DNA from: Alphaproteobacteria bacterium
Lineage (GTDB): Bacteria > Pseudomonadota > Alphaproteobacteria > RF32 > CAG-239
NCBI GenBank assembly: GCA_015062535.1
Contig: SUUK01000002.1
Span: 98,724-162,723, forward strand
Direction of reading: 5' to 3'
DNA length: 64,000 bases
The first letter of the stretch is position 1. Each line of letters starts with the position of its first letter. The notes below the pieces were generated by a model that saw only the letters and a program-made list of their open reading frames with translations, was not told the DNA's origin and ran no database searches. Position numbers and translations under genes: made by a program. Below are positions 2,932-62,434 of this stretch, piece after piece.

Positions 2932-3603
2932 TTTTAACTTTGTTGCTACAACTTTTTGATAAATTCCACCAAAGTAGGTTTGCTTTGACCATTTGCAGGT
3001 TTCGGCATTTGGAGTTAACCCTTTTATAGAATTTTTCCATAGAGCTTCGGCGAATGGTTGATATAACCTATTAAAAGCTCTTATGAAATACCATAATGGA
3101 TTAAATGGTGATGGTTTGTGATAATCTATAAATATGATTTTTCCACCAGGTTTTAGGGCTGATATTGATTTTTTTAGAAGTTTTGTGCGAGTAATTGGTG
3201 GAAGTTCATGTAATAACATATAGCAAATAATGGTATCGTATTCGCCTTTTATGGTTTTTGATGCGTCTGCATGTATGAAATTGATTTTTTGTTCTAAGTG
3301 TTTTTCTTGGCAATTTTCTAGTTGATGAGGAAGTATATCAACTATTGAATATGTACCAAAAGTTCCTACGGCATGGTAGGTTTTTTCTATTTGTGAACCA
3401 AGAGTTACGCCGATTTGGAGAATTTTGGAGTGTGGAGTAATTTCTTTTTTTAGTTCTTCAATTAGTGTATTATGATAGCCAAAAGTTAAGAGGTTTTGGA
3501 TTATTGAATTGTCTAATATGTTATAAACAAATGGTTTGAAGTATAACCAAGAATATACGTTTCTTATATATGGTGGGGATTTTCTTTTAGCTGTTTTATT
3601 CAT
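2929..3603 (-). CDS. class I SAM-dependent methyltransferase
   Basis: 224 aa; methyltransferase motif I region ILQIGVTLGSQ and downstream KPGGKIIFIDY typical of UbiE/RquA-like MTases. Confidence 0.7.
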   Translation of the reverse strand: MNKTAKRKSPPYIRNVYSWLYFKPFVYNILDNSIIQNLLTFGYHNTLIEELKKEITPHSKILQIGVTLGSQIEKTYHAVGTFGTYSIVDILPHQLENCQEKHLEQKINFIHADASKTIKGEYDTIICYMLLHELPPITRTKLLKKSISALKPGGKIIFIDYHKPSPFNPLWYFIRAFNRLYQPFAEALWKNSIKGLTPNAETCKWSKQTYFGGIYQKVVATKLK

Positions 3604-3615
3604 AATATCCTCTAA

Positions 3616-4317
3616 TTAGTTATTTTCTTCTTTAATGTATCCACGTTTTGCTGCTTCTATAACGGCAGAAGTTCTATTTTTTACATTTAATAGTTTTAAT
3701 ATGATTGTAATGTGTACTTTAATTGTTCCTTCTGTTAGGTTAAGCTTGTAAGCAATTTGTTTGTTTGATAAACCTTCGGCGATACATTTTACAATATCTA
3801 TTTGACGAGCTGTTAGGCCTTTAGACTCTGGTTTTGGGGTGCTTTGGGTTATTTTTTCTAATGTTTTTAATGGATTAAGGTATTCTTTTTGTTTTTCTTC
3901 TGATACGTCTTGAGTTTTTGAGGAATACAATAATTCATGCGGAATATACATACCTCCGGCAAGAACAAGGTTTATAGCGCTAACAATCAAGTTGTTTGAT
4001 GATGTTTTAGGAATATATCCAGATACACCAATATCTAGGGTTTGTTGCAATAATTCTTTATCAAACACTGCGGAGATGATAATGATTGGGGTGTCTGGTA
4101 GGGTGTCGTGTATTTTGGTGATGGCTGTTAGCCAATTTGCTCCAGGCATTGCAAGGTCTGTAATAACGAGGTCAAAATCTTTTTGTTTTTCAATTATTGA
4201 AAATATCTCAGTATAATTTTGAGCAGTTGTTATTTCTGGGTTTTGTAGGTTTTGCTCTAATGTGAACTCTAAACCTTTTAAGAATAATTCATGATCATCT
4301 GCTATTAATATTTTCAT
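3616..4317 (-). CDS. two-component response regulator, NarL/FixJ (LuxR-type HTH) family
   Basis: REC domain (KILIADDHELF...ITDLAMPG) plus C-terminal LuxR HTH (LTARQIDIVKCIAEGLSNKQIAYKLNLTEGTIKVHI); probable ATG at 4317 preceded by GGAG; track ORF starts further upstream at a GTG. Confidence 0.85.
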   Translation of the reverse strand: MKILIADDHELFLKGLEFTLEQNLQNPEITTAQNYTEIFSIIEKQKDFDLVITDLAMPGANWLTAITKIHDTLPDTPIIIISAVFDKELLQQTLDIGVSGYIPKTSSNNLIVSAINLVLAGGMYIPHELLYSSKTQDVSEEKQKEYLNPLKTLEKITQSTPKPESKGLTARQIDIVKCIAEGLSNKQIAYKLNLTEGTIKVHITIILKLLNVKNRTSAVIEAAKRGYIKEENN

Positions 4318-4318
4318 T

Positions 4319-5050
4319 TTAATTACTCCAATCACCTAATACCATTTGCCAACATGAAAGAGCGGAAAGAGAAGCTGTTTCGGCTCTTAGGATTCTAGGT
4401 CCAAGTGTTGCACCTTTGGCAAATGAGCTATTTCTTAATGTGTTTAATTCTTCTTTTGAAAAACCGCCTTCGGGACCAATAAGTAGGGCTGATTTGGTTG
4501 AAGAAGATGTTTTTAATAATTCATAAAAAGGGAGGCTTTCTAAGGTTTCATCCATAAAGTATAGTGTGCGTTCTTTATCCCAGTTTGTTAAAATTGTTTG
4601 CAATGTTTGAGGGGAAGATATTTCAGGAATATCGGTTCTTCTTGATTGTTCTGATGCTTCGATTGCTTGAGCAAGGTAGCGCTCGGTTTTGATATTGTTT
4701 GTTATAGTGTGTGTGGTTAGGGTTGGAATTATTTTTCTAACTCCAAGTTCGGTTGCTTTTTCTATAACAAAATCTGTATTATCTTTTTTTAATGGGGCAA
4801 AAAGTAACCAAATATCTGGTGATTGTTTATAGGGTTTGGTTTTTTGTTTAACCAGAATTTCGGTGTTTTTTTTGTTTATACTAATTATTTCGCACAAGAA
4901 TTCACCATTTTTGTTATCAAAACAATGTAATGTGTCTTGATTTGAGATTTTTACTACATTTTTTAAATAATGAGTTTGTTGCTCGTTTAAAAATATAGTT
5001 TTATCTATTATTAGTTCTTCTTCTGTGTATAAACGAAAGTTTTTTGCCAT
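4319..5050 (-). CDS. rsmE: 16S rRNA (uracil1498-N3)-methyltransferase
   Basis: 243 aa; RsmE C-terminal signature LLIGPEGGFSKEEL...ATLGPRILRAETA. Confidence 0.85.
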   Translation of the reverse strand: MAKNFRLYTEEELIIDKTIFLNEQQTHYLKNVVKISNQDTLHCFDNKNGEFLCEIISINKKNTEILVKQKTKPYKQSPDIWLLFAPLKKDNTDFVIEKATELGVRKIIPTLTTHTITNNIKTERYLAQAIEASEQSRRTDIPEISSPQTLQTILTNWDKERTLYFMDETLESLPFYELLKTSSSTKSALLIGPEGGFSKEELNTLRNSSFAKGATLGPRILRAETASLSALSCWQMVLGDWSN

Positions 5051-31682: not shown

Positions 31683-33485
31683 ATGTATGATTTGGAAAAA
31701 ATCAGAAATTTTGCAATAGTTGCTCATATTGACCATGGTAAATCTACAATAGCAGATAGAATTATTGAAACTTGTGGTGGCTTAGAGCGTCGAGAAATGA
31801 CAGAGCAAGTGCTTGATTCTATGGATATTGAAAAAGAGCGTGGTATTACTATTAAAGCGCAAACAGTAAGGCTTAAATATAAAGCAAAAGATGGTAATGA
31901 ATATTTGCTTAATCTTATTGATACTCCAGGGCACGTTGACTTTTCGTATGAAGTTTCTAGGTCTTTGGCGGCTTGTGAAGGGTCTGTTTTGGTGGTAGAT
32001 GCAACTCAAGGGGTTGAGGCGCAAACTCTTGCTAATGTGTATTTGGCAATAGATAATAATCATGAAATTGTGCCAGCATTAAATAAGGTTGATTTGCCTT
32101 CAGCAGATGTTGAAAAAGTTAAGAGCCAAATTGAAGATGTTATTGGTATTGATGCTAGCGAGGCAGTTGAAACATCTGGTAAGACTGGTTTTGGTATTGA
32201 TGAGTTGTTGGAAGCTATTGTTCAAAAATTGCCAGCGCCTGTTGGTGATGAAAATGCACCCTTGAAAGCTCTTTTGATTGATAGTTGGTATGATGCTTAT
32301 TTGGGTGTGATTATTTTAGTTAGAGTTAAAGATGGTGTTTTAAAGAAAAAGCAAACAATTCGTATGATGAGTAATAATGCGACTTATTTGATTGATAAGA
32401 TTGGTGTGTTTACTCCAAAAATGCAAGATGTTGAAGAATTGAGAGCTGGTGAAGTTGGTTTTATTACGGCATCTATTAAGAGTGTGGGGGATTGTAGTGT
32501 TGGTGACACCATTACAGATAATAAACGTCCTTGTGAAAAGGCTTTGGCTGGGTTTAAACCGTCTGTCCCTGTGGTATTTTGCTCTATCTTTCCGGTAGAT
32601 AGTAGTCAATATGAGGCGCTTAAAGATGCTCTTGCAAAGTTGAAGCTTAATGATGCTAGTATTGAATATCAAAATGAAAATTCGGCAGCGCTTGGGCTTG
32701 GGTTTAGATGTGGCTTTTTGGGGCTTTTGCATATGGAGATTATCCAAGAGAGAATCGGACGTGAATTTGACTTGGATATTATTACAACTGCTCCGTCTGT
32801 GGCATATAAAATTAACCTTACAAAAGGTGAAACGATTATGCTTCATAACCCTGCGGATATGCCAGATTTGTCTACGGTTTCTAATATTGAAGAGCCAATG
32901 GTTAGGGCGACAATTATGGTGCCAGATAACTATTTGGGAGCGGTGCTTAAACTTTGTACAGAAAGACGTGGTGTACAACAAGAGTTGACCTATGTTGGTA
33001 GTAGGGCTATGGTTGTGTATCAGATACCGCTTAATGAGATTGTTTTTGATTTTTATGATAGATTGAAGTCTATTACTAGTGGTTATGCTAGTTTTGACTA
33101 TGAGCTTACAGATTATCAAGTGTCTGATTTGGTGAAAGTGCAGATTTTGATTAATGAAGAGCCGGTTGATGCGCTTGCATTTATGTGTCATAGAAGTGAG
33201 GCAGAGTCTAGAGGTCGTCAAATTTGTGAGAGATTAAAAGACCTTATTCCAAGGCATTTGTTTAAGATACCTATTCAGGCGGCGATTGGTGGTAGGGTTG
33301 TTGCGAGAGAAACAATTTCTGCAATGCGAAAAGATGTTACTGCAAAATGTTATGGTGGTGACGTTACGAGAAAAAGAAAGCTTCTTGATAAGCAGAAGAA
33401 AGGTAAACAACGTATGCGCCAGTTTGGTAAGGTTGAAGTGCCTCAATCTGCATTTATTGAAGCGCTTAGAATCGGTGATGATTAG
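31683..33485 (+). CDS. lepA: translation elongation factor 4
   Basis: 600 aa; [21 protein letters not shown]1, DTPGHVDF G3, conserved LepA C-terminal domain; TAG stop. Confidence 0.95.
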
Positions 33486-42092: not shown

Positions 42093-43583
42093 ATGAAACT
42101 AGGGGCTTTGAAAGTACTTAGATTTTTTCATTTAATAGATAAATGTGAATATAATGTAAAACGTCAGATTGAAGTTATAAAAAGAACTCCGCTGTTTGAT
42201 GAAAAGTGGTATTTGGAAACAAATCCTGATGTGAAAAATATGAAAGGCGGAGCGATTAAGCACTATGTGGTTAATGGGTGGAAAGAAGGTAGGAATCCAA
42301 ATAAAGAGTTTGATGGTGAGATGTATCTTAAAAACTTTCCTCAATTAAAAGAAATGAATGTTTGTCCGTTGTTTCATTTTATTAAAAATAATAAGAAAAA
42401 AAGTTTTGAAATGTCTGAGTTTGCGGCTCATTTGTTTGATGTATGTGAAAGAAAAGATAAATTTGTTAAAAAAGATGAGACAGGAATTAATGAAAAAGAT
42501 TTAACTAAATTAATTGCTTTTTATTTGCCTCAATTTCATTTGTTTGAAGAAAATGAAAAATGGCATGGAAAAGGTTTTACTGAATGGACTAATGTAACTA
42601 AAGCTCTACCTCATTATGTGGGGCATTATCAACCACAATTGCCAATTGATGTTGGATTTTATGATTTAGCAAATGTTGAAGTTATGAGAAGACAGGTTGA
42701 ACTTGCAAAGTTATATGGAATTCATGGATTTTGTTTTCATTATTATTGGTTTTCTGGTAAAAAATTAATGGAAAAACCTCTATATAATTGGCTTAAAAAT
42801 AAGGATATAAATTTTCCGTTTTGTCTTTGTTGGGCTAATGAAAATTGGTCTAAGTTGTGGGATGGCGGTGATAGAGAAGTTTTGATGAAACAAGAATTAA
42901 AAAATGGAGATGATGAGAAATTTGCAAAAGACATTATCTGCTTTTTTAAGGATGATAGATATATAAGGGTAAATGGTGCGCCGTTGCTTATCGTTTATAG
43001 AGCAAGTTTGTTTAGTAATGAAAGGTTTTGCAAATTTATAGATAAGTTAAAAAGTGTTTGTAAAGAAAATGGAATTGATGATGTTTATGTTTGTTTAACA
43101 AATTCTTTTTCGTTTAATGAGAATCCTAAAAAATGGAACGCTAATGCAATTGTTGAGTTTCCTCCGCATATGGTTATTGCTCCACTTGTTAGAAAAAAGG
43201 TTATGTTTAGTACAAGTTGTTTAAATGTGTATGATTTTGGGCATTATATAAGAGAAGGAAAGCATCTTTATAAGACAAAGTTTACTTTATTTAAGACGGT
43301 GTTTCCAGGGTGGGATAATACTGCAAGAAAGGGTTTTAGTGGTGGTTCGGTTTTTGAAGGTTGTACTCCTCAGATTTATCAAAAATGGTTGGAAGACTGT
43401 ATTAGGTATACACAAAAGGAGCATAGTGATTTTGAACAATTTGTATTTATTAATGCTTGGAATGAATGGGCTGAAGGAGCTCATTTGGAACCTGATAGAT
43501 ATTATGGGTATGCATATTTAGATGCAACTAAAAAAGCTCTTTATAATACTCAGAAAGTAAATCTTGAGAAAGAGGCTTCTTAA
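42093..43583 (+). CDS. WbsX-family glycosyltransferase/glycoside-hydrolase-like protein
   Basis: 496 aa; IAFYLPQFHLFEENEKWHGKGFTEWTNV matches Glyco_tran_WbsX signature; extra about 140-aa N-terminal region. Confidence 0.68.
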   Translation: MKLGALKVLRFFHLIDKCEYNVKRQIEVIKRTPLFDEKWYLETNPDVKNMKGGAIKHYVVNGWKEGRNPNKEFDGEMYLKNFPQLKEMNVCPLFHFIKNNKKKSFEMSEFAAHLFDVCERKDKFVKKDETGINEKDLTKLIAFYLPQFHLFEENEKWHGKGFTEWTNVTKALPHYVGHYQPQLPIDVGFYDLANVEVMRRQVELAKLYGIHGFCFHYYWFSGKKLMEKPLYNWLKNKDINFPFCLCWANENWSKLWDGGDREVLMKQELKNGDDEKFAKDIICFFKDDRYIRVNGAPLLIVYRASLFSNERFCKFIDKLKSVCKENGIDDVYVCLTNSFSFNENPKKWNANAIVEFPPHMVIAPLVRKKVMFSTSCLNVYDFGHYIREGKHLYKTKFTLFKTVFPGWDNTARKGFSGGSVFEGCTPQIYQKWLEDCIRYTQKEHSDFEQFVFINAWNEWAEGAHLEPDRYYGYAYLDATKKALYNTQKVNLEKEAS

Positions 43584-44405: not shown

Positions 44406-45158
44406 ATGAAAAAAGTTTTTTTTGCATTAATTTTTGGTATGTTTTTTTGCAATCTAGGTATTGCTAATGAGAATCTTAAACAATATGAAGAAGAGTGTTT
44501 AAGTATTATTGATAAACCTAAAATTAAACTAACATCTTCATATGGAAAACTTAAATATGATTTTGAAAAAGATAGTAAGAGTTTAAGAGAAGAAACAGAG
44601 TTGCAATATAAAAAACAAGGTTTAGAGATGCCCAAAGAATTGGAGACTATGGGGCTTACAAAAATAAATGATTCTTTTGAGTTTAATATGGAAGTTGGAC
44701 AGGTTGGTGTTAGTCAAGGATATAAGTGCTTGTATCCCGAATCTATTGATGTGTTTATGGGGTATTATTTGCCTAGAATTTATATTGCTAAAGATGCTCC
44801 TGAAGGCAGTTGTGTGTATAATATTGCTCTTCGTCATGAGCAAACTCATATGCGAATCTATATTGAGGCATTAGATTTCTTTTTACCTAAGTTAAAAAAT
44901 AGAATGGAGAGGTCTATTGAAGAAAAAGGTGTGAGAATCGTTGCTCCTAATGAAGATGCTCAAACAGTTGCATCTATATATAATGAGGAATATACAAAGT
45001 ATCTTAAAGATTATGTTGATCATTGGAGAAAGCAGGTTATAAATGAACAACTGAAAATGGATTCTATTAAGCAATACATTACAGAATCTAGATTATGTAA
45101 GGAGCTTGAAGAAGAGGCTGAAAGAAAAAAAGAAAATGAAGATGAATTTGATTTTTAA
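44406..45158 (+). CDS. hypothetical secreted protein with HExxH-like motif (putative metallopeptidase-like)
   Basis: 250 aa; signal peptide; LRHEQTHMRIY (H-E-Q-T-H); terminator gtcggca...tgccgac at about 45181..45208. Confidence 0.4.
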   Translation: MKKVFFALIFGMFFCNLGIANENLKQYEEECLSIIDKPKIKLTSSYGKLKYDFEKDSKSLREETELQYKKQGLEMPKELETMGLTKINDSFEFNMEVGQVGVSQGYKCLYPESIDVFMGYYLPRIYIAKDAPEGSCVYNIALRHEQTHMRIYIEALDFFLPKLKNRMERSIEEKGVRIVAPNEDAQTVASIYNEEYTKYLKDYVDHWRKQVINEQLKMDSIKQYITESRLCKELEEEAERKKENEDEFDF

Positions 45159-45226: not shown

Positions 45227-45961
45227 TTAGCAGTTGTAATCTTTTTTTAAGCCTTTGATTGTTTCTTCTATGCCTTTGTAGGCTTTATCTATAAATTCCA
45301 TACCTTTTGCAGAGTTGTTGCGGTAGTAGACTCTAATGGTTGTCATACCTAATTGCTTTGCAAATTCTAGATTAGAGTAGCTATCATCAACAAAGATACA
45401 ATCTGTTGGTTTTTTATTTATTTTTTCGCATAGTTTTTGATATACCTCAGAACTTTCATTTTTCTTATATACATCAAAGTCTTCTACAGAATAGAATCTA
45501 CCTTTAAAGAACTCGTATAGTCCTAAATGTTTTAAGATTTTTTCGCAAATATCACGTGATGATGTTGAGAAAATATATTGAGTACATTGTAAGGTTTGGA
45601 GTTTTTCAAGGAGTCCATTATATGGTGTTATCATAGGGATATATTCTGTTTTATATTTATGATATGCAACATATAAATCTTTGTGTGATAATTTATAGAA
45701 TCTAGCAAAATGCTCTAAACCGTCACGATATGTAGAGTAAGACTCCTTTACTAAATCTGTTGCTGTTTGAAAATCAAGTGGTAAATTAAATTCATTTATT
45801 GCAGCAAGTGCTGTTGCTTCGTTAAGTTTGTTTTTATATTCGTCTGTTTCAAAATATAATGTATTATCTAAATCCCAAATAATGGTTTTTTCCACTTTTA
45901 TATCTCCGTAAATGTTAAATCTTCTAGAAAATATAGTACATCTAAAAGATTTTGAGGTCAA
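45227..45961 (-). CDS. HAD-superfamily hydrolase (paralog 3; pyrimidine-5'-nucleotidase-like)
   Basis: IIWDLDNTLY motif I; IFVDDSYSNLEFAKQLGMTTIRV motif IV. Confidence 0.62.
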   Translation of the reverse strand: MTSKSFRCTIFSRRFNIYGDIKVEKTIIWDLDNTLYFETDEYKNKLNEATALAAINEFNLPLDFQTATDLVKESYSTYRDGLEHFARFYKLSHKDLYVAYHKYKTEYIPMITPYNGLLEKLQTLQCTQYIFSTSSRDICEKILKHLGLYEFFKGRFYSVEDFDVYKKNESSEVYQKLCEKINKKPTDCIFVDDSYSNLEFAKQLGMTTIRVYYRNNSAKGMEFIDKAYKGIEETIKGLKKDYNC

Positions 45962-46184
45962 TATTAATATTTTTTATAAGATAAAACAAAAAAGTTTAAA
46001 AACTTGTTAGTAACATATTTAAATATATTGGAGGGGTGGTTGTGGACGTTTTAAAAAAAAAAAATCGTTTTATTATTAGTGGGTTATGAAAAAGTTTAAA
46101 AAAAGTGGGTGCAAAAGCTTGTAATTTAAAGCGTTTTTTTTCATTATGAAAACAGTTTCGGAAATGAACTGATGGAGATGCTTC

Positions 46185-46236
46185 CACAATATATAGTATG
46201 TGTTTACCATTTTTTAACACAATATATAGTAGAGTG
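46185..46236 (+). promoter_or_regulatory. two tandem NrdR-box-like operators upstream of nrdD
   Basis: CACAATATATAGTATGTG (46185-46202) and ACACAATATATAGTAGAGTG (46217-46236), about 32 bp centre-to-centre; resemble NrdR box consensus acaCwAtATaTwGtgt. Confidence 0.45.
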
Positions 46237-46294: not shown

Positions 46295-48355
46295 ATGGCA
46301 AATAATGAGTTGCAAATGCCGACGGCAAAAAAATACAAAATGCCGTTTAAAAGTATAACAAAAAGAGATGGGACGTTGGCTGATTTTGATGGTGACAAAA
46401 TTTATAATGCCATTTTAAGAGCTGGTGAAAATACTTTAGAGTTTGGTTCAGATGATGCATGGTTGCTCTGTGCTCAAGTAATGAAGATTTTATCTCATAA
46501 ATTTGATGAATCATTACCATCTGTTGAAGATATTCAAGATATTGTAGAAGAAGTTTTGATTTCTAATAACTATTTCAAAACAGCTAAAGCATATATTTTG
46601 TATCGTGATAAAAGAAATAGAATGAGAGGCGATGGCAAAACTGTTGTTGACGTTGAGAGTTCTATTAATGAATATCTTGAAAATCTTGACTGGAGAATTA
46701 AAGAAAACGCTAACCAAGGTTATTCTAATGGTGGTTTAATCTTAAACGTTTCTGGTAAAGTTACAGCTAACTATTGGCTTTCTCACGTATATCCTCATGA
46801 AGTAGGTGAAGCTCATAGAAATGGTGATATTCATATTCACGATTTGAGCATGCTTGCAGCTTATTGTGCTGGTTGGTCTTTGAAAAACTTGCTTAGAGAA
46901 GGTTTTAATGGCGTTCCAGGAAAGGTTGAAGCTGGTGCTCCTAAACACTTGAGTTCTGCTGTTGGTCAAATGGTTAACTTTATGGGTACTCTTCAAAACG
47001 AATGGGCTGGTGCTCAAGCATTTTCTTCTGTTGATACTTATCTTGCTCCATATGTTAGAAAAGATAAATTAACATACAATCAAGTTGAACAATGTATGCA
47101 AGAACTTATCTACAACTTGAATGTTCCTTCTCGTTGGGGTTCTCAAACACCATTTACAAACTTTACTTTTGACTGGGTTTGCCCAGAAGATTTGAGAGAT
47201 CAAAAACCATATATTGGTGGTGTTGAACAAGATTTCACATATGGTGATTTGGGTGAAGAAATGGCAATGATTAACAAAGCATACATCAATGTTATGATGC
47301 GTGGTGACGTTATGGGTAGACCATTTACATTCCCAATTCCTACATATAACATGACTTGGGATTTTCCTTGGGAAAATGAAAATACAGAATTGTTGTTTGA
47401 AATGACTGCAAAATATGGTTTGCCTTATTTCCAAAACTTCCTCAATTCTTCTTTGAAACCAGGTCATATTCGTTCTATGTGTTGCCGTTTGCAACTTGAC
47501 TTGAGAGAATTGCTTGCTCGTGGTAATGGCTTGTTCGGTAGTGCTGAGCAAACAGGTAGTGTTGGTGTGGTAACAATTAACTGCGCAAGACTTGGTTATA
47601 TTTATAAAGGTAATGAACAAGCATTGTTCCAACGCACAGAAGAATTAATGAATATCGCAAGAACATCTCTTGAGATTAAGAGAAAAGTTATTCAACGTTT
47701 AATCGATAATGGTTTGTTCCCATTCACAAAGAGATATTTGGGAACTTTGAGAAATCACTTCTCTACTATCGGTGTTAACGGTATGAATGAAATGATTAGA
47801 AACTTTACTGATGGTAAGCATGATATCACAGATGCTTTCGGACAAGAATTTGCTGAAAAGTATTTAGATTTTGTTCGTGAAAAATTAGTAAAGATTCAAG
47901 AAGAAACAGGTCATATGTATAATTTGGAAGCAACACCTGCTGAAGGTGCAGCAACTAGATTTGCAAGAGAAGATAAAAAGCGTTTTGTTGGTATTATCCA
48001 AGCAGGTACTCCTGATGCGCCATTCTATACAAACTCTTCTCAATTGCCTGTAGGATATACAGATGATCCATTTGAGGCTCTAGATTTGCAAGCTAAATTG
48101 CAATCTAAATATACAGGTGGAACAGTGCTTCACTTGTTTATGAACCAAAGAATTTCATCTGCAAAAGTTTGTCGTGATTTTGTGAAGAAAGTTTTAGCAA
48201 ACTACAGACTTCCATATATTACGATTACACCAACATTCTCTGTGTGTCCAAAACATGGATATATTGCTGGTGAGCACGAATTCTGTCCAATTTGCGATAA
48301 AGAAAAGAAGGCAGAGAAACTAAAAAAGCTTGCAAATATGCAAAAAGTAGTGTAG
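46295..48355 (+). CDS. nrdD: anaerobic ribonucleoside-triphosphate reductase (class III RNR), lacking the C-terminal glycyl-radical domain
   Basis: 686 aa; N-terminal ATP-cone, conserved core (GSVGVVTINCARLGY), Zn ribbon CPKHGYIAGEHEFCPIC, then stops at TAG 48353-48355 before the glycyl radical motif. Confidence 0.9.
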   Translation: MANNELQMPTAKKYKMPFKSITKRDGTLADFDGDKIYNAILRAGENTLEFGSDDAWLLCAQVMKILSHKFDESLPSVEDIQDIVEEVLISNNYFKTAKAYILYRDKRNRMRGDGKTVVDVESSINEYLENLDWRIKENANQGYSNGGLILNVSGKVTANYWLSHVYPHEVGEAHRNGDIHIHDLSMLAAYCAGWSLKNLLREGFNGVPGKVEAGAPKHLSSAVGQMVNFMGTLQNEWAGAQAFSSVDTYLAPYVRKDKLTYNQVEQCMQELIYNLNVPSRWGSQTPFTNFTFDWVCPEDLRDQKPYIGGVEQDFTYGDLGEEMAMINKAYINVMMRGDVMGRPFTFPIPTYNMTWDFPWENENTELLFEMTAKYGLPYFQNFLNSSLKPGHIRSMCCRLQLDLRELLARGNGLFGSAEQTGSVGVVTINCARLGYIYKGNEQALFQRTEELMNIARTSLEIKRKVIQRLIDNGLFPFTKRYLGTLRNHFSTIGVNGMNEMIRNFTDGKHDITDAFGQEFAEKYLDFVREKLVKIQEETGHMYNLEATPAEGAATRFAREDKKRFVGIIQAGTPDAPFYTNSSQLPVGYTDDPFEALDLQAKLQSKYTGGTVLHLFMNQRISSAKVCRDFVKKVLANYRLPYITITPTFSVCPKHGYIAGEHEFCPICDKEKKAEKLKKLANMQKVV

Positions 48356-48382
48356 AATATTAAGTTAGTGAAAGGGAGAAAC

Positions 48383-48610
48383 ATGAGTAATATTATTAAC
48401 ATAGAAGACGTAATCTTGGACAATTCTGAAAGACAACGTTGCGAGATTTATAGCAGAGTTATGGGCTATATTCGTCCTACTACTGAATACAACGTTGGTA
48501 AATTAGGTGAGTTCAAATCTAGATTATGTTTTTGCGAAGACAAAGCCGTTGAAGGTTGTGAAGTTCGTGAATGCGTTTGCAACGAAACATTGGCTATGGC
48601 TGCAGAATAA
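48383..48610 (+). CDS. NrdD glycyl-radical domain encoded as separate small ORF (in frame with nrdD, after one TAG)
   Basis: ATG 48383 with AAAGGGAG RBS; CEIYSRVMGYIRPTTEYNVGKLGEFKSR = class III RNR glycyl radical signature (RVxGY...N.GK..E...R); same frame as nrdD (48368-46295 divisible by 3). Confidence 0.6.
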   Translation: MSNIINIEDVILDNSERQRCEIYSRVMGYIRPTTEYNVGKLGEFKSRLCFCEDKAVEGCEVRECVCNETLAMAAE

Positions 48611-48651: not shown

Positions 48652-49353
48652 ATGAATCCTATTAGAATCGGCGGTATTGAGAAATTCAGTATCGTCGATT
48701 TTCCAAATAAAATGGCTGCTGTTGTCTTTATGCAGGGATGTCCATGGTGTTGTCCGTTTTGCCACAATGTGCAATTGCAAGATGTAAGTGGTGAAACTAA
48801 TATTGTTTGGCAAAAATTTATTGATTTTTTAGGAACCAGAAAAGGTGTGCTTGATGCTGTGGTTTTTTCTGGTGGTGAACCTTTGGTGCAAAAAGGTTTA
48901 ATTGATGCTATTAAAGAAGTAAAAGCTTTGGGCTATGAAATAGGACTTCATACAGGTGGGTATAGACCTGAATTTTTTAGAGAAGTAGTTGAGCTTGTAG
49001 ATTGGGTTGGATTTGATATCAAAGCACCTCTAGAAGAAAATAGATATAAGGTTGTTACTGGTGGCATTGCTGATGTAGAAAAAGTAAAAGAAAGCCTTAA
49101 TATTTTAATAGAATCCGGAAAAAGTTTTGAATGCAGGACAACTTGTGACCCGAGATTTTTAAGTATTGATGATTTGTATGAAATTGCGGATACATTAAAG
49201 GGACTTGGTGTTAAAGAATATTATTTGCAAAAATATCGAAAAGTAGAAAGTGATATTGATGCAAGTGAAATAAAAAGCTTAGCTTTGGTTGAAAATGAAC
49301 AATTGAATGAGTATTTGAAAAATTGTTTTGATGTATTTGATGTAAGAAAATAA
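48652..49353 (+). CDS. nrdG: anaerobic ribonucleotide reductase activating protein (radical SAM)
   Basis: 233 aa; FMQGCPWCCPFCHN radical-SAM cluster-binding motif; operonic with nrdD; terminator cacccact/agtgggtg at about 49399..49427. Confidence 0.88.
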   Translation: MNPIRIGGIEKFSIVDFPNKMAAVVFMQGCPWCCPFCHNVQLQDVSGETNIVWQKFIDFLGTRKGVLDAVVFSGGEPLVQKGLIDAIKEVKALGYEIGLHTGGYRPEFFREVVELVDWVGFDIKAPLEENRYKVVTGGIADVEKVKESLNILIESGKSFECRTTCDPRFLSIDDLYEIADTLKGLGVKEYYLQKYRKVESDIDASEIKSLALVENEQLNEYLKNCFDVFDVRK

Positions 49354-60919: not shown

Positions 60920-62434
60920 ATGCAAAAGAAATATAGAGATAAATGTTTGTGGTTTTTGAATTTTGGACTATTTTTTATTGGATTGTTTTTTTGTGTTTTA
61001 TTGTCTTATGTTAGAATCATTTTTGGTAAAATTGAAATAGAGCAATTGTTTGAGATATTTTTTAATAATATATTTAGAAGTTTTAGTTTTAAGATTGTTT
61101 ATGGATATATGTTTGTATCTATTGTAATTCCTTTGATTTTAACGTGTTTGTTATTTTATTTTTTTATACAATATAATAAAAAAAGTAATAAGAAACTTTT
61201 TTTATTAGGATGTTTTTTGTATGTGTTTGGAGTTATTGGCATCGGTGTTTTAGTTTCTTGGTATGCGGGTTTGGTTGCTAATTTAGATTTGTTTTATTTG
61301 TATTTAATTGGAGCTATATTGTATATTTGTATAGTTGGTAGAGATTTTAGCGCCTTTTCTGTTTTTTTATATGGAGTAGTTTTTATTATAGGGGTGTTTA
61401 TCTTTGTTTTAGATGAATGGAAATTTAGTAGTTATGATGATGAATTTTGTAAAAAAGTGGAGTTTGTAGATACAAAAGATATAAAGATTGATGAAAAGAG
61501 GAATATAATAGTTGTTTTTGCGGAAAGTTTTAGGTTGCGGGATAGTATTGTTAAAGTAAAAGGTGAAATATTTAAAATAGCAGATGAAGATGGTATTAAA
61601 TTTTCTAATTTTATAGAAGGTAGAGAAGCTCAAAATACATATGATGCTCTATTTTCTTTGTTAAATGGAATAGGGAAAAATGAGAAGTATGGATGTATTA
61701 AGCATATATCTAAAAATAATTTTATAGATATTTTTCAGAATCTAGCTTTGAAAGAAAGCTATATTGATTATTCTAAAGTGGGTATTGGAAATATTTTAGC
61801 AAATAATGGGTATAAAAATATATTTGTTAAAGGAGGAAATATAGATTTTTTTAATACGAGAGAACTTTTGTTATCTCAATCTTTTAAATGGGAAGATATT
61901 TATGATGAAAGTAGTTTTATCGAATGGTTAGAATATAAAAAAACATTGAAAGTAGATTGGTTTGGTCCTAAAGATGAAGATGTGTTTTTAAAATTTAAGC
62001 AAAAGATTGTGGAAGTAGATAATGAACAGCCTTTTTTTGCAGTAATGTTTACAGCAGATTGGCATTTAGATGATATACCAGGGTTAAAGAATCCTTTTTT
62101 TGATAATGATGTTGATCTTTTAAAATCTACAATAAATAATTTTAATGATTTTATTACATGGTTTAAAAAACAAGATTTTTATGAAAAAACAACGCTTGTG
62201 ATTTTGGCAGATCATAAAAAAATGGGTGTAATTAATAATGGTAAAAATGAAAAATTGTATAATGCTTTTTTTAATTTGCCTGAGGAATTGAAAAAAAATG
62301 CCAATCTTAATAGAAAGTTTTATCAAATAGATATGGCGCCTAGTATATTAGAAATTGCTGGTGCAAAACTTAATAATAAAAAATATGGTTTGGGTATTTC
62401 TATTTTTGATAATAATAGAGAAGGAACAAAATAA
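60920..62434 (+). CDS. membrane-anchored sulfatase-family (alkaline-phosphatase superfamily) transferase, LtaS/OpgB/EptA-like
   Basis: 504 aa; 5 N-terminal TM helices + periplasmic catalytic domain; C-terminal DMAPSILEIAG typical of LtaS/MdoB family. Confidence 0.65.
   Translation: MQKKYRDKCLWFLNFGLFFIGLFFCVLLSYVRIIFGKIEIEQLFEIFFNNIFRSFSFKIVYGYMFVSIVIPLILTCLLFYFFIQYNKKSNKKLFLLGCFLYVFGVIGIGVLVSWYAGLVANLDLFYLYLIGAILYICIVGRDFSAFSVFLYGVVFIIGVFIFVLDEWKFSSYDDEFCKKVEFVDTKDIKIDEKRNIIVVFAESFRLRDSIVKVKGEIFKIADEDGIKFSNFIEGREAQNTYDALFSLLNGIGKNEKYGCIKHISKNNFIDIFQNLALKESYIDYSKVGIGNILANNGYKNIFVKGGNIDFFNTRELLLSQSFKWEDIYDESSFIEWLEYKKTLKVDWFGPKDEDVFLKFKQKIVEVDNEQPFFAVMFTADWHLDDIPGLKNPFFDNDVDLLKSTINNFNDFITWFKKQDFYEKTTLVILADHKKMGVINNGKNEKLYNAFFNLPEELKKNANLNRKFYQIDMAPSILEIAGAKLNNKKYGLGISIFDNNREGTK

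Follow-up and report, generated by a model that had tools for sequence, protein, structure and literature searches.

Glycyl-radical enzymes, including class III ribonucleotide reductases (RNRs), are described as single chains in which a C-terminal domain stores the radical. Does this description hold for the class III RNR encoded in the 64,000-nucleotide stretch of contig SUUK01000002.1 analyzed here (the window), which derives from an alphaproteobacterium of the CAG-239 lineage? In this DNA, the nrdD open reading frame (ORF) ends at a TAG codon shortly after its zinc ribbon, and the glycyl-radical motif lies downstream on a small ORF of its own. An earlier note, made from the sequence alone, had reported this interruption and listed four explanations: a recent nonsense mutation, a sequencing error, programmed readthrough, and a two-piece enzyme with a detachable radical-carrying subunit. 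The comparative data presented here strongly support the fourth explanation, and the other three fail on them. As judged from gene and protein sequences, the locus is very probably a genuine two-gene class III RNR, composed of a catalytic chain of 686 amino acids (aa) and a radical chain of 75 aa.

The two genes and the junction between them

The large ORF (nucleotides (nt) 46295-48355, plus strand; 686 aa) matches the NCBIfam profile NF006126 at 1107 bits (cut-off 548) over positions 3-652 of 684, and the Pfam NRDD profile PF13597 at 594 bits (cut-off 26.2) over positions 1-535 of 562. It begins with an ATP-cone (PF03477, 82 bits; aa 20-108, nt 46352-46618). A finger loop with a double cysteine, SMCCR, is located at aa 394-398 (nt 47474-47488), and a zinc ribbon, CPKHGYIAGEHEFCPIC, at aa 651-667 (nt 48245-48295), where a metal site is predicted by alignment with the Cys/His/Cys/Cys-type motif given for the Thermotoga maritima enzyme in PMC4493059. 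An MCCR double-cysteine finger loop is described in PMC9669993 for a lineage that includes the thioredoxin-using Neisseria bacilliformis and T. maritima enzymes; as judged by this motif, the window enzyme belongs to that lineage. After the zinc ribbon, the chain ends in a lysine-rich tail, and its TAG (48353-48355) stands 19 residues past the ribbon, at the coordinates that the earlier note had given. A glycyl-radical motif of the RVxGY type was sought in the large subunit and was not found. Of the features that define an NrdD protein, the large ORF has the NRDD barrel, the finger-loop cysteine and the zinc ribbon, and it lacks a C-terminal RVxGY on the same chain. The cognate radical S-adenosylmethionine (SAM) activase, NrdG, is encoded alongside, as expected of a class III RNR system.

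The motif absent from the large ORF is present in the small one (nt 48383-48610, plus strand; 75 aa), which runs from an ATG at 48383 to a TAA at 48608-48610. This ORF starts 27 nt (nine codons) past the TAG in the frame of the large ORF, as previously noted, and contains SRVMGYIRPTTEYNVGKLGEFKSR, with the motif SRVMGY and the predicted radical glycine, Gly28, at nt 48464-48466. It matches positions 649-681 of 684 in NF006126 and positions 531-561 of 562 in PF13597 (25.4 bits). The profile coordinates of the two ORFs therefore abut at the linker between the zinc ribbon and the glycyl loop, which is where the break had been placed before any profile was consulted.

To locate the junction at the residue level, the large ORF up to CPICD was joined in silico to the small ORF from residue 14. 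The spliced sequence aligns uninterrupted with residues 551-632 of the fused T. maritima NrdD (...CPVCGKAKVDEYMRIVGY...; ...CEDGHAFYG--ERCPVCGKA---KVDEYMRIVGYLVPVSAFN...), so the break corresponds to a short linker between the zinc ribbon and the glycyl loop. Compared with the T. maritima protein, both pieces carry extra residues at the junction, namely, the lysine-rich tail of 19 aa on the large chain and an acidic head of about 14 aa on the small chain. Such additions on both sides are unlike the product of a simple point mutation.

The 27-nt spacer between the ORFs (nt 48356-48382, plus strand) contains a Shine-Dalgarno sequence, AAAGGGAG, at 48371-48378. The good ribosome-binding site that had been claimed for the small ORF is thus present, although it stands 4 nt ahead of the ATG and not 5 nt. 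The same AAAGGGAG-ATG arrangement is found in close relatives of the window locus. Several relatives (L003-L006, L010 and others) have an additional upstream ATG that would add an extension of the form MKGR(K/N/D)M..., and gene callers accordingly report proteins of 80-82 aa; the window counterpart of this upstream start is a GTG at 48368 (region 48368-48385). The shorter start, ATG 48383, is likelier, because AAAGGGAG, which lies inside the extension, is the conserved Shine-Dalgarno sequence.

Downstream of the small ORF is nrdG (nt 48652-49353, plus strand; 233 aa), which encodes a radical-SAM activase of the NrdG2 type with the Pfam domains Radical_SAM and Fer4_12. The gene is intact, as had been stated earlier, and scores 198 bits against TIGR02495 (cut-off 131). 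No terminator-like sites were found between nrdD, the small ORF and nrdG in the window, and the three genes are presumably transcribed as one operon.

Conservation of the split arrangement

Related genomes were searched for the same split. The search yielded 80 loci from species-representative genomes that encode large-subunit relatives 67-98% identical to that of the window. These loci come from metagenome-assembled genomes (MAGs) of gut and rumen Alphaproteobacteria, which is the window's own group, and from Omnitrophota, Coriobacteriia/Atopobiaceae, Parasutterella muris, a Burkholderiales MAG and Methylophaga. When phmmer was applied to all ORFs, a large ORF, a small ORF and nrdG were detected in each of the 80 loci; the small ORFs of L053 and L072 were recovered in this way after a motif-based regular expression had missed them. 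A script found the order large, small, nrdG in 79 loci, and the lone exception is an artefact of overlapping ORF boundaries. The architecture is thus old and conserved.

Details of the junction vary considerably among these loci. The frame of the small ORF relative to the large one is 0, +1 or +2 in 30, 24 and 26 loci, respectively; the large ORF ends with TAA in 48, TAG in 29 and TGA in 3; and the gap between the two ORFs ranges from -4 to 302 nt. Given this variation, the frame shared by the two ORFs in the window genome is a coincidence. The description of nrdD as interrupted by a single in-frame TAG is literally true of the window, but it misleads, because the shared frame is accidental. 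The small ORF itself, which is 57-82 aa long in the sampled genomic loci, is under strong purifying selection: the median pairwise ratio of nonsynonymous to synonymous substitution rates (dN/dS) is 0.08 among 31 close relatives (median dS 1.17), and the median is 0.16 across 79 sequences.

These observations decide among the explanations that treat the stop codon as a defect or as a signal to be bypassed. If nrdD were a pseudogene or had been freshly truncated by a nonsense mutation, one in-frame TAG and a distance of only nine codons between the pieces would be expected, and both are seen. The same break, however, recurs in all 80 related species with differing stops, frames and spacers, the small ORF has its own Shine-Dalgarno sequence and a dN/dS of 0.08, and the tail and head at the junction have no counterpart in the fused T. 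maritima protein. We regard a recent mutation as a negligible possibility. An error of sequencing or assembly that created the stop codon is hardly credible either. Nothing speaks for it except the probable origin of the window in a metagenome assembly, whereas 31 contigs from independent projects encode exactly this 75-aa protein (its cluster at 90% identity has 30 members), and two independently assembled relatives, L001 and L002, which are 97-98% identical to the window locus, have the same TAG and spacer.

Programmed readthrough, or reassignment of the codon, would yield a fused canonical NrdD and leave the small ORF without separate translation. TAG is the leakiest stop codon, and in the window genome the ORFs are in frame across it. 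Against this proposal, TAG is an ordinary stop in the window, where it ends 13 of 48 long ORFs; among these, accA (1139-2113) and lepA (31683-33485) both end with TAG at full profile length, in agreement with what had been said of them earlier. Moreover, the small ORF is out of frame in 50 of the 80 relatives, often with several stops in between, and large ORFs end in TAA or TGA as well as in TAG. The conserved Shine-Dalgarno sequence and ATG ahead of the small ORF, as well as the existence of orphan small genes on phages and plasmids (see below), also argue against this explanation, which is very unlikely and, given the separate gene, unnecessary.

A further possibility is that nrdD was split by a mobile element, such as a group I intron, an intein or a homing endonuclease, and is restored by RNA or protein splicing. 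The nrdD gene of phage T4 carries an intron. Such genes are a known target of mobile elements, and nrdD is reported as fragmented in 95 of 104 Jug-phage genomes (PMC12880540). At the window locus, the spacer of 27 nt, like the gaps down to -4 nt in relatives, is too short for an intron; the junction residues (19 and 14 aa) are far too short for the halves of a split intein; and a Pfam scan gives NRDD only, with no intein or homing-endonuclease domain. The short spacer and the lack of such domains exclude an intron or intein split, and we judge an origin of this kind exceedingly improbable.

The small protein belongs to a large family of its own. In a HMMER scan against 1.84 billion representative sequences, the 75-aa query matched 1,140 clusters (50% identity) at E≤1e-3, and its strongest matches reach 2e-33. 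Of the 150 top-ranked matches, 149 are proteins of 48-124 aa; the remaining one (P0145, 891 aa, with 13 matched stretches) was rejected as an unrelated tandem-repeat protein that is no family member. When a profile of 36 diverse members was used and clusters were drawn at 90% identity, the matches numbered at least 7,997, and the top 120 all have lengths of 61-102 aa. Members share the core ERQxCE[IV][YW][ST]RVMGYxRPxxxxNxGKxxE[FY]xxRxxF, and 12 residues are invariant in an alignment of the 36 homologues: R17, R25, V26, G28, Y29, R31, P32, N37, G39, K40, E43 and R47. The window ORF has every one of them, and in length (50-125 aa) and core motif it fits a standalone family of NrdD-type glycyl-radical proteins. 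A dedicated family for this protein was sought in Pfam, NCBIfam and PHROG, and none was found; in GenBank, the 75-aa protein (MBE6462784.1) is labeled "hypothetical protein".

Cys20 (nt 48440-48442), which precedes the radical glycine by eight residues, is kept in 404 of 408 sampled family members, and its position is occupied by valine in the fused T. maritima NrdD. This cysteine might tether the small subunit, for example, at the zinc site. The window protein also has a cysteine-rich tail, CFCEDKAVEGCEVRECVC (aa 49-66, nt 48527-48580), which is clade specific and kept among close relatives. More generally, a C-x0-2-C motif is found in the variable C-terminal tail of 162 of the 408 proteins (about 40%). 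A redox-shuttle or metal-binding role is possible for these cysteine pairs; by analogy with the tails of class I and class II RNRs, they may pass reducing equivalents to the double-cysteine active site. The ending ...AAE (nt 48596-48607 in the window) is common to 178 of the 408 sampled members, phage copies included.

For the small protein alone, AlphaFold2 (using the 36-sequence alignment) gives a predicted local distance difference test score (pLDDT) of 67, a predicted template modeling score (pTM) of 0.23, and a structure that is mostly coil, with one helix at aa 36-46. According to this model, the protein is unlikely to fold alone, and its predicted disorder fits a segment that folds on a partner. 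A PDB sequence search with the small ORF alone returned nothing meaningful; an alignment with T. maritima NrdD was obtained only for the spliced junction.

Orphan copies, cultured hosts and the surroundings of the locus

The small gene also occurs by itself on mobile elements. A scan of IMG/VR with the family profile gave 509 confirmed matches, of which the best 80 are all standalone small ORFs. Among the loci taken with 4 kb on either side, 70 include 2.6 kb or more of upstream sequence, and 57 of these lack any large nrdD. With flanks of 10 kb on either side, a large nrdD is absent from 60 of 72 phage-contig loci, and an NrdG2-type activase from 71 of the 72. Recurrent neighbors of the phage gene include endolysins, a reverse transcriptase, a tyrosine integrase and a Holliday-junction resolvase. 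Judged by gene content, the IMG/VR contexts are those of temperate phages, with the small gene situated near the lysis and integration end; examples among loci L081-L232 are the genes at 3989-4204 in L083 and 3989-4189 in L087. The orphan small gene of phages looks like a candidate for an unrecognized auxiliary or moron gene.

At least one plasmid shows the same pattern. Allochromatium tepidum pAt1 (NZ_AP024564.1; locus L235, 2460-2645) carries an orphan copy of 61 aa that is annotated "nrdD". It has no adjacent large nrdD or nrdG, is flanked by genes for a zinc-finger-containing protein and a DUF4942 protein, and is near a ProQ/FinO gene. Cellular genomes always have the gene between nrdD and nrdG, whereas these copies on mobile elements stand alone, which argues that the small protein acts in trans on the large subunit of the host. 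This suggests that it works as an exchangeable radical module. On the phage contigs that do carry a large nrdD, some ORFs are oversized (L185, 7359-9812; L197, 6970-9975; L213, 7386-9953), with 818-1002 aa from stop to stop compared with about 686 aa. Such lengths point to inserted sequence, which might be inteins or further domains, on top of a detached radical subunit.

Complete split loci are present in cultured organisms. A tblastn search of PLSDB identified 161 records, of plasmids or chromids, that encode the small protein. Most are from Ralstonia (132), followed by Bradyrhizobium (7), Cupriavidus (5) and Paracoccus (4), with Cereibacter, Allochromatium, Azospira and others also represented. 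RefSeq labels these small genes as "nrdD" coding sequences (CDSs) of 59-66 aa. On megaplasmid pHG1 of Cupriavidus necator H16, for example, three consecutive RefSeq genes encode a 676-aa "ribonucleoside triphosphate reductase", a 66-aa nrdD product and the activase. The 676-aa protein ends in ...CPRCDEEILARKRDQLAA and is 67% identical to the window large subunit, and the 66-aa CDS, H16_RS32675, contains ERQPCEVWTRVMGYHRP. The same three-gene layout is found in Bradyrhizobium ottawaense and Paracoccus denitrificans.

In pHG1 (L233), the small ORF (3444-3644) overlaps nrdG (3628-4347) by 17 nt, and in many gut Alphaproteobacteria among the 80 loci the gap between the boundaries of these two ORFs is 0-4 nt. 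That the end of the small ORF abuts or overlaps the start of nrdG suggests translational coupling with the activase.

Published work has touched these loci. C. necator reportedly requires the pHG1 nrdDG locus to grow anaerobically by denitrification (Siedow 1999, cited in PMC2864759). Because the locus was reported essential, the split arrangement is functional in vivo. The genome paper of Cupriavidus metallidurans CH34 lists NrdDG as Rmet_5137 plus Rmet_5139 and skips the gene between them (PMC2864759). Searches of the accessible full-text literature, together with reviews of RNRs and glycyl-radical enzymes, the RNRdb paper and recent RNR phylogenies, yielded no account of a class III RNR whose glycyl-radical subunit has a gene of its own; subscription journals or RNRdb notes may mention one. 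The split arrangement is real, of great age and widely distributed, and it seems to have escaped notice rather than been investigated. The genes themselves are already in RefSeq, sometimes under the name "nrdD", and the window locus is one ordinary member of the family. Annotation pipelines and RNR phylogenies may mis-score these genes, given that a large ORF of this kind appears "truncated" and its small partner is commonly labeled hypothetical or missed.

Upstream of nrdD in the window are two close copies, 33 bp apart, of a 16-mer that resembles the NrdR box: CCACAATATATAGTAT at 46184-46199 and ACACAATATATAGTAG at 46217-46232, both on the plus strand. The consensus reportedly given by Rodionov and Gelfand in 2005 is acaCwAtATaTwGtgt. 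The earlier note had called these sites NrdR boxes; they are present, and by consensus resemblance they are candidate sites. A promoter-like site occupies 46203-46230, and its -10 hexamer overlaps the second of these 16-mers. The divergent neighbor of nrdD (45227-45961, minus strand) encodes a HAD-family hydrolase whose best match is the pyrimidine 5'-nucleotidase profile TIGR01993, at 74 bits and below the cut-off of 143. A link of this putative hydrolase to nucleotide metabolism is possible. Elsewhere in the window, three sizeable ORFs, at 42093-43583, 44406-45158 and 60920-62434 (496, 250 and 504 aa), matched nothing in NCBIfam at E≤1e-5.

Proposed mechanism and comparison with known systems

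If the two chains form one enzyme, they would divide its parts between them. The large subunit would supply the ATP-cone, the barrel with its Cys-Cys finger loop and the zinc ribbon, and the small subunit would supply the glycyl-radical loop that is C-terminal in canonical NrdD. NrdG would use SAM to generate a 5'-deoxyadenosyl radical, which would abstract the pro-S hydrogen of Gly28 in the small subunit. The small subunit would dock on the large subunit beside the zinc ribbon, such that its glycyl loop inserts into the barrel opposite the SMCCR finger loop. The radical would then pass to a finger-loop cysteine, and the resulting thiyl radical would start the reduction of nucleoside triphosphates as it does in fused enzymes. 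These steps are modeled on established chemistry of class III RNRs and other glycyl-radical enzymes, and we consider a two-polypeptide mechanism of this form, with activation by NrdG, docking and radical transfer, to be likely.

Because the large subunit has no radical motif, the small protein must be the obligate radical subunit and not a spare part. The competing view is that the small protein is merely accessory (a GrcA-like spare, a regulator or a decoy substrate of NrdG) and that the large subunit obtains its radical from elsewhere. The orphans on phages and plasmids show that the small protein can be supplied independently, and GrcA offers a precedent for a standalone radical domain (PMC8683613). 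Yet the large subunit ends just past the zinc ribbon and alone has no site for radical storage, the small ORF invariably lies between nrdD and nrdG in cellular genomes, and the small protein is not a homologue of GrcA: a Pfam scan at E≤0.01 gave no match to PF01228 and only PF13597. An accessory role is therefore improbable, although it is the least improbable of the alternatives considered here.

What a cell might gain from an obligate, separately encoded radical subunit is a matter of conjecture. The radical domain of a fused enzyme has to swing away from the barrel before the activase can act on it, and detachment of the domain might make such access trivial. Also, oxygen cleaves glycyl-radical proteins at the glycine; with a detached subunit, the damage might cost only a replaceable peptide of 8 kDa and spare the 78-kDa enzyme. 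Such a rationale would suit hosts of this kind, namely, denitrifiers along with bacteria of the gut or in other host association, which face fluctuating oxygen. A stronger proposal treats the small protein as a radical cartridge, consumable and exchangeable, which would be charged by NrdG, fitted into an NrdD barrel that has no radical site of its own, sacrificed to oxygen and replaced. Acting in trans, the orphan copies that temperate phages and plasmids carry would then serve to augment or seize control of the anaerobic supply of deoxynucleoside triphosphates (dNTPs) in the host. We advance this proposal tentatively, as one that is somewhat more likely to be wrong than right.

Several considerations weigh against the two-gene enzyme or limit how far it can be taken. 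The association of the chains and the placement of the radical on Gly28 are read from sequence, and the supposed benefits of splitting (a replaceable fuse, easier access for the activase) are conjectural. The window ORFs are in frame across a single TAG, so that a trace readthrough product is possible. The relatives among the matches listed are all split members. Finally, the essentiality of pHG1 nrdDG comes through a secondary citation and applies to the locus as a whole.

To our knowledge, GrcA is the only standalone radical domain that has been recognized, and it is a repair part. The significance of the present family is that the radical site is placed obligately on its own product of 6-9 kDa in a large and phylogenetically broad group, which includes the tractable model denitrifiers C. 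necator H16, P. denitrificans and Ralstonia solanacearum. Two separable proteins open access to questions of how the activase reaches a buried glycine, how the radical domain moves and how oxygen damage is handled. The orphans of temperate phages point to an unnoticed auxiliary gene that targets host dNTP synthesis. If the cartridge proposal is true, carrying the glycyl radical on a freely exchangeable subunit would be the normal mode of a core enzyme, and the phage copies would constitute a new class of auxiliary gene.

Among known systems, the closest is the canonical single-chain NrdD with its NrdG, as in Escherichia coli, phage T4, T. maritima, N. bacilliformis and Prevotella copri. Shared features are the ATP-cone, the NRDD barrel, the finger-loop cysteine, the zinc ribbon, the RVxGY loop, the adjacent radical-SAM activase and NrdR-type operator boxes. 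The window type differs in having the glycyl loop as a separate product, in the extra residues at the junction and in the near-invariant Cys20.

The comparison with GrcA (YfiD), which rescues PflB, had already been drawn in the earlier note, and as an analogy it holds: both are small standalone glycyl-radical loops with a cognate activase, a trans action on a large barrel and an oxygen-damage rationale, which in the present case are proposed. The analogy does not extend to family or to role. GrcA belongs to PF01228 and substitutes, after damage, for a radical domain that PflB itself normally possesses, whereas the window protein has no PF01228 match, is obligate for a large subunit that lacks a radical domain, and is encoded in the same operon.

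A split is also known in another RNR class. The class II enzyme NrdJa/NrdJb of Pseudomonas aeruginosa likewise consists of two adjacent genes whose chains must assemble (Crona et al. 2015, cited in PMC9669993). That enzyme uses a B12 cofactor and is split elsewhere, and no radical-storage element is separated from the remainder.

Finally, nrdD genes fragmented by introns, inteins or endonucleases (T4 nrdD/sunY; the Jug phages of PMC12880540) resemble the window locus in that nrdD appears as several ORFs. They differ in that mobile elements and splicing are involved, whereas the window type has no intervening element and consists of stable, separately initiated genes kept across phyla. For the Jug jumbo phages, the legend of Fig. 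2D in that report shows nrdD in four fragments and gives no splicing evidence between those of 230 aa and 91 aa (PMC12880540). This particular break could represent a true detached radical subunit rather than an intron.

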